A stretch of 64,000 nt of DNA from a phage (GCA_017864995.1 GCA_017864995.1_4097.1), one strand, 5' to 3'; shown: positions 841-53,073, counted from the stretch's first letter. Notes: a model not told the origin generated them from the sequence alone. Made by a program: numbers and translations.

Positions 841-1356
841 ATGACCGTTCCTTATGTTAAAATTATTAATAATATCCTTGATTCGTGGGAAGATGTTATT
901 ACTGGTAAAAAGAACCCAATGCCAGTACACGCACTAACCGGAAGACTACAATTCAGAACGTCAAACAAAACTGAAACTTTTAATAATCATGATGTTCACA
1001 TTACTATAAAATCACCTGTACGTATTGTAATTAAAAAAAATCAAGATGATGAATTGACATTATCTATTGGTAGTGATAAAATCATTTTAAGTAATTTATC
1101 CGAAGAAGAATTCTTTCAACGAAGTACTATCATCGACATGAAAGATTTCACATATGAATCATTGGTTGAACTCAATACACGTTTCAACGATATTCAGGAA
1201 CGATTGCGACCAATCCTCCGTAAAGAAGAGGAAGCCTGGAATGAAAGTGTGAGAAAAATGCAAGAAATGTTGAAAGAAAATATTAACAATCTGGGTAAAG
1301 CTACAATGGAATTTGGTAAATCTTTTAAACTGAACTTTTCAAAGGATCGTAAATGA
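841..1356 (+). CDS. hypothetical protein, EEE-x-F-Q-x-S-T-V motif family
   Basis: Track ORF 814 start lies inside the terminator hairpin so internal ATG 841 chosen; contains LSEEEFFQRSTII. Confidence 0.6.
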   Translation: MTVPYVKIINNILDSWEDVITGKKNPMPVHALTGRLQFRTSNKTETFNNHDVHITIKSPVRIVIKKNQDDELTLSIGSDKIILSNLSEEEFFQRSTIIDMKDFTYESLVELNTRFNDIQERLRPILRKEEEAWNESVRKMQEMLKENINNLGKATMEFGKSFKLNFSKDRK

Positions 1357-1808
1357 AAATTGATAATTTGATTCATGTCTTAGGGACTTTACACAAAATA
1401 TTATTACATCTTAACGAGATGAATAAACTAGGTTATAATGTCCATAATGTATTTGAACCTACATTTAAATATAACTCAATCACTGGAGATGGTAATTACA
1501 TAATCGAATATACATATGAAACCGATCCAGACTTCTATCCTCTTACGTTGCGAATTTATCCAACAAGTCCGATAGGCATTCACGATATATCATCAATTTC
1601 ACTTGATCCAGATGGTGAAACGAGTATTGAATACAATAATGATTCAAAACCAGAATTTTACATTGATGATATTAAAAAGTTGTTCAATGATGAATATGTT
1701 TTCCAACAAAGTACTGTGCATGATGTTGGTAGTACTAATGGGCAATTTTGGAATACATGTTATTATCATATGATTGAAATTTGTAAATTACTAAAAGGTG
1801 TTGAATAA
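1353..1808 (+). CDS. hypothetical protein, F-Q-x-S-T-V motif family
   Basis: ATGA start/stop overlap with upstream gene; contains YVFQQSTVHD. Confidence 0.65.
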   Translation: MKIDNLIHVLGTLHKILLHLNEMNKLGYNVHNVFEPTFKYNSITGDGNYIIEYTYETDPDFYPLTLRIYPTSPIGIHDISSISLDPDGETSIEYNNDSKPEFYIDDIKKLFNDEYVFQQSTVHDVGSTNGQFWNTCYYHMIEICKLLKGVE

Positions 1809-2191
1809 TGAAATACTGCATTGAAGTACATTACACTACAGGTGATACTGAAAATTGTTATGACGTTCTTAATACAATTGATATTCAATGGTCTTCTAAA
1901 GAGGAAGCAGTTGCTGCTTTACAGTGCCTAAAAGAGCATTGGGTGTTTTATATGAAGCAAGATAATTGCTATACAAAAGAACACGAAACCATCGTCGAAA
2001 ATGCTAAACAAAAAGAGTGGTTTGACCCAATATCACCAGCATATTCATTCTTGGTTAAAGTTGGCGATGTGACAGTTCCATTACGAACACCGTGGAACGG
2101 CTACTTTGAAACTCTTCATAATGCACGAGTTGTCGCTGTTGATAACCCTGAACAAATCGATTTCGATTCATTGGACTGGAAAAAACTATGA
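1808..2191 (+). CDS. hypothetical protein
   Basis: TAATG overlap with upstream gene; 127 aa ORF. Confidence 0.65.
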   Translation: MKYCIEVHYTTGDTENCYDVLNTIDIQWSSKEEAVAALQCLKEHWVFYMKQDNCYTKEHETIVENAKQKEWFDPISPAYSFLVKVGDVTVPLRTPWNGYFETLHNARVVAVDNPEQIDFDSLDWKKL

Positions 2192-2631
2192 CAGTACTGC
2201 ACCAATTGAAGAAGGTTAAGCATCCAGTTGTATACGAGGATTGGAAACGACAGAAGTTGATGGGTGATTTTTATTTCCCAAAATCTAAAGTTCTTGCGAA
2301 TTCAAGATGTACATATTTCAAACATAATGATAAAGATACAGTATTTGTTGAAATGGGTTTCAATCCATCAAATACAATGTTCACTACTAACCAAACATTT
2401 TACAAATTTCATATCCAAAAAGATTCATTTTCTATCATGATTTTAAAACTTTTAGTTGAAGATCTGCTATACCGTGGTGAACGTGTACCTTTATCATTAG
2501 TGGATATTCCTTATAATAATTTAGAGGAAATGTACTTCCAACAGTTGACAGTACAAGAAAACTTTGGTATGATAGGACTTCAAGAGTTAGAGATGATTAA
2601 GCAAATTCGTGATATCTACTTTAAGGAGTAA
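2188..2631 (+). CDS. hypothetical protein, F-Q motif family (divergent)
   Basis: ATGA overlap; contains LEEMYFQQLTVQE. Confidence 0.65.
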   Translation: MTVLHQLKKVKHPVVYEDWKRQKLMGDFYFPKSKVLANSRCTYFKHNDKDTVFVEMGFNPSNTMFTTNQTFYKFHIQKDSFSIMILKLLVEDLLYRGERVPLSLVDIPYNNLEEMYFQQLTVQENFGMIGLQELEMIKQIRDIYFKE

Positions 2632-2633
2632 CT

Positions 2634-2777
2634 ATGCCAGTACGTAACAGTACTTCACGCTTTACGCTTCAACAGAAAGCAGATCTTTTGAATATGGCAA
2701 ACAAAGATTCTAATTTTCACTATCTAGTACTCGGTGGTTCAGTTGAAAAGATTGACCTACGTGAGTGTATGAAATAA
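2634..2777 (+). CDS. hypothetical small protein (47 aa)
   Basis: Not in track (<60 aa); ATG preceded by GGAG SD, fills gap between genes; hand-translated. Confidence 0.4.
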   Translation: MPVRNSTSRFTLQQKADLLNMANKDSNFHYLVLGGSVEKIDLRECMK

Positions 2778-2790
2778 CAAAGGGGATAAA

Positions 2791-50810: not shown

Positions 50811-50811
50811 A

Positions 50812-51183
50812 ATGAGTTATCGTGAAATATTTTCAATCATTACTATTATTGTGTTTAGTTTAGGTTCTTTGATTTGGTTATTGTATTACTTCTGTGTAAC
50901 CCCAGTATATAATATGCTAAATTCAGTAAAATCTGACGTTGGTATTGTTTCTTTTATTATCTTCATGGCATATTATATGCTAAGTATCACAGGTTTGGTT
51001 TTGGTTGTTATCTTTGACCTTGGGCCGAATCAAGATGGTATGGAGATGTGGGAATTGATAACGATGTTTGCATGTATGATACCTGCATTTGGTGTATGTG
51101 CTGGTGTATTTTATGGGTTGTGTAAAGGTGTAAACTACTTAAAAAATATCCACAATACTATTCGTAAAAAACGTATGTTGTAA
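50812..51183 (+). CDS. small polytopic membrane protein, basic-C-tail family (copy B7)
   Basis: C-terminus NIHNTIRKKRML; last plus-strand gene before the convergent terminator. Confidence 0.6.
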   Translation: MSYREIFSIITIIVFSLGSLIWLLYYFCVTPVYNMLNSVKSDVGIVSFIIFMAYYMLSITGLVLVVIFDLGPNQDGMEMWELITMFACMIPAFGVCAGVFYGLCKGVNYLKNIHNTIRKKRML

Positions 51184-51218
51184 TAAAAAAATCCAGTACT
51201 ATAATAGTACTGGATTAA
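51184..51218. terminator. bidirectional rho-independent terminator
   Basis: A-run, hairpin atccagtact-ataat-agtactggat, T-rich tract; between convergent genes. Confidence 0.7.
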
Positions 51219-51220
51219 TT

Positions 51221-52345
51221 TTAATTATCTAAGCCACCAATTACACTGAACAGTGTGGTAACGTCTGAACTATTATCTATGTAAGTTCTTCTACCAACAT
51301 AATATAGTTGTCCTTTTGCTTGAATAAAAGTTACGGTCCCTGTATTGAATGTTATAATATCATTGTATGTAATGTCAGGTGGTAGTGCTGCTGATAACGC
51401 AGTAACTTTACTTAATGCAGCACTAGTACTACCATTTATACCAGCAGCAATACTACCAGTACCATAGAACTTATTATCTTTACCAATGAATACGTTGGCT
51501 GATGCTTGTGTAGCTGATGTTATTGCCTTACCAATTTGGAATGCGGTTCCTATGGTGTATGGTGTGCTCCTGGCTGCGTCTATGCTTTGTGTATATCCAT
51601 CCCCTAGCTGACCATTAACTTTGTCACCACATGAGTATAAAGTACCATTGAGGCTGTATATGATCCCACGGTTAGAGAAGCTAACAGCTTCTGCATTAGT
51701 CCATACTGGAGCGGTGTATGAGTTTACACGACTAGCAGTAGTTCCTAGTCCTAGTATACCATATGTGTTATCACCACATCCAAACCATTGTCCAGTACTG
51801 TTTTGATAGAACACTGAACGTTCTGTTGATTCCATGCGTACAGCATCCACAGCACCACTTTTAACGAACGAAGTGGATGAGGATGTAGTACCAGTACCCA
51901 ATGCACCATAAGTGTTTGTACCAATCGCATAGATTGATCCTAGTGGTGTCATCACACGTATACAGTTATATCCCAATTGAACTTTACATTCAAATAGGTT
52001 GTCCCATATTTCAGGAACAGCAGAAAATAAATTTGTAATTTCGAACCATGATGTTGTCGAACCAGTTAATCCTATACTGCTTTTGTTTCCTAAAATGAAA
52101 ACAGTTTTGTCCTTCTTAATTATCCATGATGATAGGAAACCTATCTCACAGCTATGAACATTTGATTCTATTTGGGTAATATAATACTTAACTGTGTTAT
52201 CACCCATGAATGCCGCAGCACCGGATGCAAAAAGGTTTCCAGTTTGTTTATTTAAAATGTAGTTATTGTTTCCATATACACTAACATCATAAGAACTTTC
52301 TTGTTTTTCGTTCCCATAATCAAATAACAATACGAAAGGTAACAT
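51221..52345 (-). CDS. RCC1-like repeat (beta-propeller) protein, paralog 1
   Basis: 374 aa; begins MLPFVLLFDYGN; repeats of G-x-N-x2-G-x-LG-x-G type (YSCGDKVNGQLGDG, FGCGDNTYGILGLG). Confidence 0.8.
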   Translation of the reverse strand: MLPFVLLFDYGNEKQESSYDVSVYGNNNYILNKQTGNLFASGAAAFMGDNTVKYYITQIESNVHSCEIGFLSSWIIKKDKTVFILGNKSSIGLTGSTTSWFEITNLFSAVPEIWDNLFECKVQLGYNCIRVMTPLGSIYAIGTNTYGALGTGTTSSSTSFVKSGAVDAVRMESTERSVFYQNSTGQWFGCGDNTYGILGLGTTASRVNSYTAPVWTNAEAVSFSNRGIIYSLNGTLYSCGDKVNGQLGDGYTQSIDAARSTPYTIGTAFQIGKAITSATQASANVFIGKDNKFYGTGSIAAGINGSTSAALSKVTALSAALPPDITYNDIITFNTGTVTFIQAKGQLYYVGRRTYIDNSSDVTTLFSVIGGLDN

Positions 52346-52422
52346 GATAAAATCTCCTTGTGTTATACTTTATTTAATCATTTTATAATGTACAATTTTA
52401 CAGCGATTTAATTGAGGTACTC

Positions 52423-53073
52423 ATGAATAAAAGAAGTAAGTTCTATCAAGAATATTTCACTAAACAGAAACGATTCACAAAAAAATACTTTACATCACCC
52501 CACCGACCAGTTGCAAGTTACAAACGTCCTAATACTAACTATCTTACTGGTGGCAAGTTTAGTGCAAAGTTCGAATTACTTATGCGTGAAAAGAATATCA
52601 AGATGCATTACGCAGAGACGAGAAAAAACTCATCAATTATTTGCTCTGATTTTCTTGAGTACGGTTGCTTAACTTATAAATTCAATGATGTATATTTGTA
52701 TATTGATGTTGATTGTAACAGTACTCGTATGTTTGAGATTTCAATTCACCCAAATCACAACCGTTATATAAACATTAACTTGATTGATAAAGTACTGATT
52801 GGTATATCTAGTACTGATGGTGGTGGATTTGAATTTATTGCTTCAAAATATGATGAAGATTTCGTACTTTACCCAGTACTTGATGATGTGAAAGATATAC
52901 TCAATTCATTAAAAGGAAGTCAATACAAATTATCTGAAGAACAGCTATTTCAGTACTCACTTATTCATGATGATATCGAGATATACTTAGAGTGTGCGAG
53001 AATCTTGGAGTATCTTTATAATGAATTAACAACAACTGGTAAAGTGACTGCATTCACATTATATAATATGTAA
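52423..53073 (+). CDS. hypothetical protein, F-Q motif family
   Basis: 216 aa ORF embedded in the RCC1 array on the opposite strand; contains LSEEQLFQYSLIHDD. Confidence 0.65.
   Translation: MNKRSKFYQEYFTKQKRFTKKYFTSPHRPVASYKRPNTNYLTGGKFSAKFELLMREKNIKMHYAETRKNSSIICSDFLEYGCLTYKFNDVYLYIDVDCNSTRMFEISIHPNHNRYININLIDKVLIGISSTDGGGFEFIASKYDEDFVLYPVLDDVKDILNSLKGSQYKLSEEQLFQYSLIHDDIEIYLECARILEYLYNELTTTGKVTAFTLYNM

Follow-up and report, generated by a model that had tools for sequence, protein, structure and literature searches.

The question raised by the 64,000-nucleotide stretch of phage DNA analysed here (GCA_017864995.1_4097.1, referred to at its full length as the window) is why so many of its small genes encode the same short pattern, [ST]-E-E-E-x-F-Q-x-S-[TL]-[VI], in proteins that otherwise appear unrelated. 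A sequence-only reading of the window had listed 14 such genes and suggested that the pattern could be a processing site or a short linear interaction motif of an undescribed system. The results below indicate instead that the motif marks a large and deeply diverged protein family, in which it is predicted to form a core helix of a small folded domain. Megablast relatives of the window are the Asteriusvirus E. coli jumbo myophages 121Q, PBECO4, slurp01, BF17, fEgEco12, and TH47 (86-99% identity), and by this measure the window is from an Asteriusvirus jumbo coliphage of the 121Q/PBECO4 type. From position 1 to ~ 51 kb the genes are almost all small and on the + strand, and from ~ 51 kb onward there follows a - strand array of larger paralogues. 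The motif family supplies 15 of the roughly 100 genes of the window, with products of 119-216 amino acids (aa).

Translation of the window confirmed all 14 of the previously listed open reading frames (ORFs), each with a single copy of the motif where it had been placed. Three of the proposed starts (841, 7687, and 16130) are internal ATGs of longer mechanical ORFs beginning at 814, 7627, and 16088, and these internal starts agree with those of PHROG profiles and of orthologues. The list stood in full but was incomplete: leave-one-out hidden Markov models (HMMs) revealed one more member, the 15th, at 15641-16057 (LTEDMYMQLNFVYD), and later profiles confirmed it. Among the 14 ORFs, the motif lies 30-45 residues from the C terminus in those free of extensions. 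The strict 11-position pattern was observed 13 times in the + frames, never in the - frames or in reversed translations, and 0.01 times in shuffles, while E[EDKQ]..FQ occurred nine times in the + frames and not at all in the - frames, with 0.46 in shuffles. Because 13 copies of the strict pattern were observed against 0.01 expected, the motif is real and not a product of chance, and the proposal of a genuine protein family was upheld. The remark that the codons differ was equally sound, since the 36-nt motif segments average just 49% DNA identity (maximum 75%); conservation is therefore at the protein level, and a DNA repeat was ruled out.

Across 109 members, the motif reads T/S (74%), E (83%), E (83%), F (97%), Q (93%), S (81%), L/T (89%), V/I/L (97%), and D/E (71%) at its conserved positions. 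The only replacement of the Q is M, which is found in 7% of these members. The conserved polar residues of the family (E, E, Q, S, and D/E) are confined to the motif.

The extent of the family was explored with profiles. In leave-one-out HMM searches, 11 of 14 left-out members ranked straight after the training set. A profile of the window members matched 45 small, unnamed proteins among 1.84 billion representative proteins, of which about 30 were distant proteins of 105-155 aa, all carrying [ST]EE..FQ.S[TL][VI].[DE] followed by [LI][TS].E[ED]. The family HMM was built from the window members together with the distant representative-protein matches. On a metagenomic jumbo-phage contig of 20 kb (L001), it identified 17 ORFs, one of them in the training set; the family is taken to be real because the other 16, with E-values of 1e-14 to 8e-5, were found untrained in an independent contig. 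In the complete genome of TH47 (352,450 bp, unannotated), the HMM identified 54 ORFs at first and 65 after three rounds of iteration; every one lies on the coding strand, and a reversed-sequence control gave none. These copies fall into three main clusters, at 54.8-81.4 kb, 117-181 kb (the equivalent of the window), and 335-351 kb. In the Erwinia jumbo phage Hallingskeid, 25 copies were found within 50 kb, every one of them under a hypothetical annotation, and tblastn and BFVD matches were also obtained in Salmonella Munch-like, Klebsiella, RaK2, CBB, GAP32, and fHe-Yen9-04 phages. The HMM search that the sequence-only reading had proposed finds the family in Rak2-like jumbo phages. Set against the 551 genes predicted in phAPEC6 (PMC7247149), the ~ 65 copies in TH47 amount to about one gene in ten of an Asteriusvirus genome. 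A 793-aa metagenomic repeat protein, P0059, was treated as a false positive that matches the profile by its repeated ETNFQQSIILE peptide alone. P0059 contains at least nine copies of a unit with ETNFQQSIILE[ED]KD, whose likeness to the core F-Q-x-S-[TL]-[VI] is probably a coincidence.

Comparison of the TH47 copies indicates that the family grew through recurrent tandem duplication on a local scale and that the copies then diverged beyond the reach of BLAST. Adjacent members score higher against each other than do nonadjacent ones (Mann-Whitney p = 2e-4), and for 25 of the 65 members the best paralogue lies within two family positions, with a maximum identity of 48%. TH47 has an extra member (IDEDMFFQLSTVYDM) at 157208-157612, between the orthologues of the window genes at 15641 and 16130, where the window has only a 30-bp gap; therefore copy number varies between close relatives. 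In the comparison with TH47, the median ratio of nonsynonymous to synonymous substitution rates (dN/dS) is 0.30 for the 15 window members, which indicates that they are real genes constrained by purifying selection; the value is slightly above the 0.18 of 53 neighbouring genes (p = 0.03).

Database searches assigned no identity to these proteins. Scans of the members against Pfam and NCBIfam gave noise only and no domain assignment, the 15 window proteins fall in 14 separate PHROGs, all of 'unknown function', and a PDB sequence-profile search returned only an insignificant match to SKA1. Homologue searches started from the members yielded nearly exclusively close orthologues of the first query sequence, none of them named, and BLASTP at 1e-4 among the members linked only 14144 and 14553, the latter being the closest paralogue of the former at ~ 30% identity. 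No signal peptide, catalytic signature, or known domain is present in the members, which are annotated as hypothetical in every relative examined. The motif accordingly maps to no known domain signature in the Pfam, NCBIfam, and PDB sequence searches, with PHROGs giving 'unknown'; in addition, no account of the family was found in the searchable literature on Asteriusvirus, RaK2, or CBB or in jumbo-phage reviews, in agreement with its earlier description as undescribed. The family has gone unrecognized because its members have diverged beyond BLAST, with a 12-residue helix signature remaining.

An AlphaFold2 model of the 14144-14560 product, calculated from a 52-row alignment, reached a predicted local distance difference test score (pLDDT) of 90.5 and a predicted template modelling score (pTM) of 0.84. 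The model comprises a helix at residues 5-15, strands at 20-25, 29-36, 51-58, 61-68, 71-78, and 84-91, a short helix at 92-95, and helices at 98-107 and 115-125. In this model the motif, T97-E-E-K-F-F-Q-Y-C-L-V107, corresponds to helix 98-107 with T97 as its N-cap, the block having a pLDDT of 93-95. The last helix is preceded by T114, and its start, T114-F-E-D, resembles that of the motif helix. The pattern [ST]-x-x-E is the textbook helix capping box. The domain is thus predicted to consist of an N-terminal helix, a six-strand antiparallel beta-meander, and C-terminal helices, of which the first long one is the motif. By the same prediction, the motif Ser/Thr is the N-cap, the acidic residues lie in the first helix turn, a second capping box, [LI]-[TS]-x-E-[ED], begins the last helix, and one face of the motif helix, lined by F, [TL], and [VI], is packed against the sheet.

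When the motif is drawn as a helical wheel, its three unconserved positions share an arc of 60 degrees, and the rest of the circle is taken up by conserved ones. Because the variable positions share one narrow face, helical periodicity suggests that the motif helix is buried over most of its circumference. That M is the sole replacement of Q also fits a packing role. A second member, the paralogue at 16130-16534 (21% identical), was modelled from a 27-row alignment with low confidence (pLDDT 58). Structure prediction of two members, which the sequence-only reading had proposed, therefore gave one confident and one weak model, with the same order of elements and a helix at the motif in both. 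Foldseek searches of BFVD returned full-length matches with template modelling scores of 0.57-0.61 at 15-21% identity, plus weaker ones, all to uncharacterized proteins of Asteriusvirus, RaK2, CBB, GAP32, and fHe-Yen9-04. We read the motif, together with the last strand and the last helix, as the structural keystone of a small folded domain; lacking the character of an exposed linker, it looks like a core helix and not like a cleavage site or linear motif.

No significant match was obtained in a fold search of solved structures, where the nearest fold, weakly and below significance, was that of p32/gC1qBP/MAM33 (PF02330; PDB 1p32, 3qv0, 7te3). The p32 fold has an N-terminal helix, a seven-strand antiparallel sheet, and two C-terminal helices, and p32 assembles into a doughnut-shaped homotrimer. 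Membership of the MAM33/p32 family was rejected: none of 46 members matched PF02330 at E < 0.1, the PDB sequence-profile search retrieved no p32, and hhalign against human p32 gave a probability of 0.06% (with an approximate query sequence).

The timing of expression was approached through promoters, defined as TTGACA-N16-18-TATAAT with at least 11 of the 12 hexamer positions, a consensus match alone. All 36 such near-consensus sigma-70 promoters of the window are on the + strand, the - strand having none, against 2.1 +/- 1.5 per strand in shuffles. Twelve of the 36 are perfect matches, and many sites are located within the 3'-terminal part of the gene before them; sites at 10748, 14480, and 15561 stand directly upstream of the members at 10807, 14553, and 15641, respectively. 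In CBB, an RpoD-promoter-rich region of short hypothetical ORFs has been interpreted as early host-takeover genes (PMC5259590). From the promoter consensus we infer that the family is probably transcribed early, by the host sigma-70 RNA polymerase.

The virion proteome of phAPEC6 comprises 62 proteins (PMC7247149). According to synteny and mass, a mapping that is itself partly inferred, the region equivalent to the window contributes four of them (gp035c, gp037c, gp077, and gp078c) and no family member; the four match 37719-38102 (gp037c, 14.8 kDa), 38950-40461, 19134-20291 (- strand), and 18274-19089. The phAPEC6 members that were located directly, gp289c-291c and gp318c, are likewise not in the 62-protein proteome. 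The family is apparently absent from the virion, and processing by the head protease is unlikely because the members are not among these 62 proteins. A separate observation is that 37719-38102 and 38950-40461 (+ strand) are mutual paralogues and, by the annotation of relatives, virion structural proteins; their position is central within the presumed early region.

The family is acidic, with a median isoelectric point (pI) of 4.78 compared with 5.55 for other ORFs on the same strand (p = 1e-6). The pI is 4.3-4.8 in 11 of the 15 window members, acidity alone being nondiagnostic. No known DNA-mimic antirestriction protein of the Ocr, ArdA, and Arn type was found to resemble the family in sequence or fold. 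In the basic members, the charge comes from N- or C-terminal extensions on an acidic core. Two members share a Lys/Arg-rich N-terminal extension, at 36578-36730 (MNRKGKFKVSKKNK...) and 52423-52650 (MNKRSKFYQEYFTKQKRF...), and charged C-terminal extensions are encoded at 1249-1356 (member 1, K/E-rich) and 8113-8175 (member 5, basic).

The reading that we favour, and that we would put at about even, is that the motif marks a large, deeply diverged family of small acidic single-domain proteins of Rak2-like jumbo myophages, typically of 120-150 aa, acting as early host-directed binders. The members would be transcribed early by the host sigma-70 RNA polymerase and would not be packaged in virions. 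Most likely, judging from context only, they would serve as diversified binders, inhibitors, or decoys of host proteins in host takeover or counter-defence. Each paralogue would owe its specificity to the variable N-terminal sheet and loops, and the motif helix would be the structural keystone of the scaffold.

Several points weigh against this reading. With the 15 columns around the motif masked, five-fold cross-validation recovered only three of the 65 members, masked pairwise phmmer comparison linked 14 of the 65, and profile-profile comparison (hhalign) between four orthologue groups over their N-terminal parts gave probabilities below 1.5%. Support for the proposed common fold comes from a single confident model, a second, weak one, and Foldseek matches whose sequences were not inspected. 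The promoters are assigned by consensus only, the role as host-directed binders is drawn from context only, and the dN/dS gap between the members and their neighbours is small (p = 0.03). Finally, the near-invariance of two Glu, the Gln, and the Ser exceeds the usual needs of a structural helix, so that a common site for binding or catalysis is conceivable.

That last point is the starting place for a possible, though on the whole unlikely, alternative, in which the conserved E-E/Q/S helix is exposed and docks ~ 65 adaptor-like paralogues onto one common partner. Candidates for the partner would be the host RNA polymerase, a protease, the ribosome, or a phage enzyme, with the variable remainder of each protein selecting cargo or targets. 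Confinement of the only conserved polar residues to the motif is what such docking would produce, as is variation beyond recognition in the rest of the protein, in the manner of constant plus variable modules, and some members bear basic or coiled-coil-like extensions. The predicted structure speaks otherwise, since the motif helix lies inside a compact domain (pTM 0.84) and the most conserved residues are hydrophobic. The Q-to-M replacement suits packing more than a specific hydrogen-bonded contact, [ST]-x-x-E with an acidic first turn is a generic helix-start signal, and no partner is known.

The masked comparisons bear most directly on a second alternative, which we regard as quite unlikely: that the ~ 45 conserved residues are a mobile C-terminal module joined to non-homologous N-terminal domains, making the members a domain-sharing group. 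Sequence signal can indeed be detected in only ~ 45 residues, which comprise a strand of alternating hydrophobic residues at -8 to -2, the motif helix with a loop, and the last helix, which is amphipathic; almost nothing connects the members once the motif is masked. The description of the flanking sequence as diverse was therefore strongly borne out, with almost no similarity detectable beyond the motif region. Protein size and motif position are nevertheless tightly constant, the motif starting 99 residues (interquartile range (IQR) 92-109) from the N terminus and 42 (IQR 39-55) from the C terminus. Two paralogues of 21% identity are predicted with the same element order, full-length Foldseek matches reach proteins of 15-21% identity, and neighbouring paralogues attain 48% identity along their whole length. 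Because of this constant geometry, the agreeing models, the full-length Foldseek matches, and the full-length identity of neighbours, one common domain is favoured over a mobile module. The concern that the members might align only at the motif held for sequence similarity, which is limited to those ~ 45 residues, and was countered at the level of predicted structure by the shared element order of the two models.

A small enzyme or ligand-binding fold, in which the E-E...Q..S residues would sit at the opening of a half-barrel sheet and serve catalysis or the binding of a metal or ligand, is very unlikely: ~ 65 divergent enzyme copies per genome would be unprecedented, the Pfam, NCBIfam, and PDB sequence searches gave no enzyme-family match, and all fold matches were below significance. 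The consensus of the tobacco etch virus (TEV) site is E-x-x-Y-x-Q followed by S/G. Cleavage at or near F-Q by a potyviral NIa/3C-type enzyme, which was the protease-site idea of the sequence-only reading, draws on the E-E-E-Y-F-Q of some members (E at P6, an aromatic residue at P3 and/or P2, and Q at P1) and is barely credible, as the register differs from that of the TEV site, the P1' residue is variable with Ser at P2' (81%), Y at P3 is not conserved among the 109 members, the motif lies in predicted helix 98-107 of a compact, confidently modelled fold (and is helical in the weak model also) and not in an exposed extended linker, the members were not found in the phAPEC6 virion proteome, and a published survey of the phage group lists as proteases ClpP, SprT-like metallopeptidases, and a T4-type prohead protease, none of them 3C-like (PMC7824862), no genome scan for a 3C-like enzyme having been made.

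Table 1. Members of the motif family and the promoter field in the window (positions are those of the whole stretch).
Feature	Position	Strand	Length (aa)	Motif	Motif position	Remarks
Member 1	841-1356	+	171	LSEEEFFQRSTII	1099-1134	From ATG 841; mechanical ORF 814; phrog_38573, unknown
Member 2	1353-1808	+	151	NDEYVFQQSTVH	1686-1721	
Member 3	2188-2631	+	147	LEEMYFQQLTVQ	2521-2556	
Member 4	7026-7418	+	130	SEEDEFQKNTTL	7302-7337	
Member 5	7687-8175	+	162	TEEERFMLSTIN	7963-7998	From ATG 7687; mechanical ORF 7627; M for Q
Member 6	8172-8576	+	134	SVEEEFQYNLL	8460-8495	Variant motif, shorter by one residue
Member 7	10807-11172	+	121	TEEEYFQTSTVQ	11065-11100	Near-consensus sigma-70 promoter upstream, 10748-10775
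Member 8	11871-12242	+	123	ADAEDEFQKSTV	12126-12161	Slight variant motif
Member 9	14144-14560	+	138	TEEKFFQYCLVN	14432-14467	High-confidence model
Member 10	14553-14912	+	119	TEESLFQYSMIN	14808-14843	Tandem neighbour of member 9
Member 11	15641-16057	+	138	TEDMYMQLNFVY	15932-15967	From ATG 15641; mechanical ORF GTG 15581; promoter-like site 15561-15590
Member 12	16130-16537	+	135	TEEEHFMDSTVK	16415-16450	From ATG 16130; mechanical ORF 16088
Member 13	30664-31179	+	171	TEESVFQQSLIH	31012-31047	
Member 14	36578-37150	+	190	NEEEYFQESIVT	37013-37048	Lys/Arg-rich N-terminal extension
Member 15	52423-53073	+	216	SEEQLFQYSLIH	52933-52968	Basic N-terminal extension
Sigma-70 promoter field	1054-47877	+				35 putative sites, co-oriented with the small-gene arrays; one more at 58448

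Other features of the region accompany the family. Six tRNA genes (Ser-tga, Ser-gct, Met, Asn, and two adjacent Thr-tgt) lie among the members at 10055-14127 (+ strand). Two further small families are present on the same strand: four paralogous, BLASTP-linked ORFs of ~ 55 aa at 8748-8918 and 10252-10738, three of them in tandem, and three tandem paralogous ORFs of 112-122 aa at 41924-42959. The - strand array at 51221-63995 is made up of 11 paralogous, BLAST-linked ORFs of 249-462 aa, the first of which is a 'chromosome condensation regulator' (RCC1-like) in the annotation of fEgEco12; homologues named 'DNA condensation proteins' were detected in phAPEC6 virions. The member at 52423-53073 is a lone + strand gene between two of these - strand RCC1-like genes, far from the other members. 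In contig L001, a DNA cytosine methylase gene split by a Hint/LAGLIDADG intein (10464-12356) adjoins the family array, and a gene for a PTH2 peptidyl-tRNA hydrolase lies within it.

The family covers about a tenth of the genes of giant coliphages that include 121Q, PBECO4, and phAPEC6, among them phage-therapy candidates, and dozens of 'hypothetical protein' orphans, each in its own PHROG, merge into one testable unit. It offers a concrete case of jumbo-phage genome expansion through tandem amplification, and its naturally varied copies of a single small scaffold form a panel that could be screened against host factors and defence systems. A new family at the Pfam/PHROG level is warranted, as is structure determination, since no solved fold matched significantly. 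A bolder proposal, tentative and in our judgement unlikely, is that of an adaptor or decoy arsenal built on a new small fold, in which each paralogue would neutralize a different host or defence factor, or deliver it to a shared machine by way of the E-E-x-x-F-Q-x-S helix. If this is true, no larger gene family dedicated to action against the host would be known from any phage, and the family would be a main reason for the gigantism of Rak2-like genomes.

Comparable blocks of early small genes are the SPO1 host-takeover module and the early small ORFs of T4. The early region of CBB (CBB_390-546) is alike in that small genes of unknown function run in one orientation over long arrays, with many strong host-sigma promoters among them (PMC5259590). 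The host-takeover blocks of SPO1, T4, and CBB are described as consisting mostly of unrelated small proteins, however, whereas here a single family provides 15 genes, and ~ 65 genome-wide. Other expansions in jumbo phages include an array of similar genes, over 30 in number, in 121Q and G and ~ 35 zinc ribbons in Bacillus phage G (PMC5646251, PMC7824862). The 121Q array is alike in being a lineage-specific expansion in the same phage genus, but it is described as 'very similar genes', while BLAST joins a single pair of the present family, which neither account mentions (PMC5646251, PMC7824862). The 121Q array of more than 30 genes is most likely the RCC1-like - strand array (window 51221-63995) and not the motif family. 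The multigene families of poxviruses and African swine fever virus, the 'genomic accordions', belong to another host domain and have another fold, and an anti-host function has been demonstrated for the poxvirus families, whereas it is presumed for the family described here. The likeness lies in tandem amplification, deep divergence, clustering in variable regions, and presumed anti-host roles (PMC13359090), and it is seen in the present family in neighbouring copies that are more similar than distant ones and in a copy number that differs between relatives.

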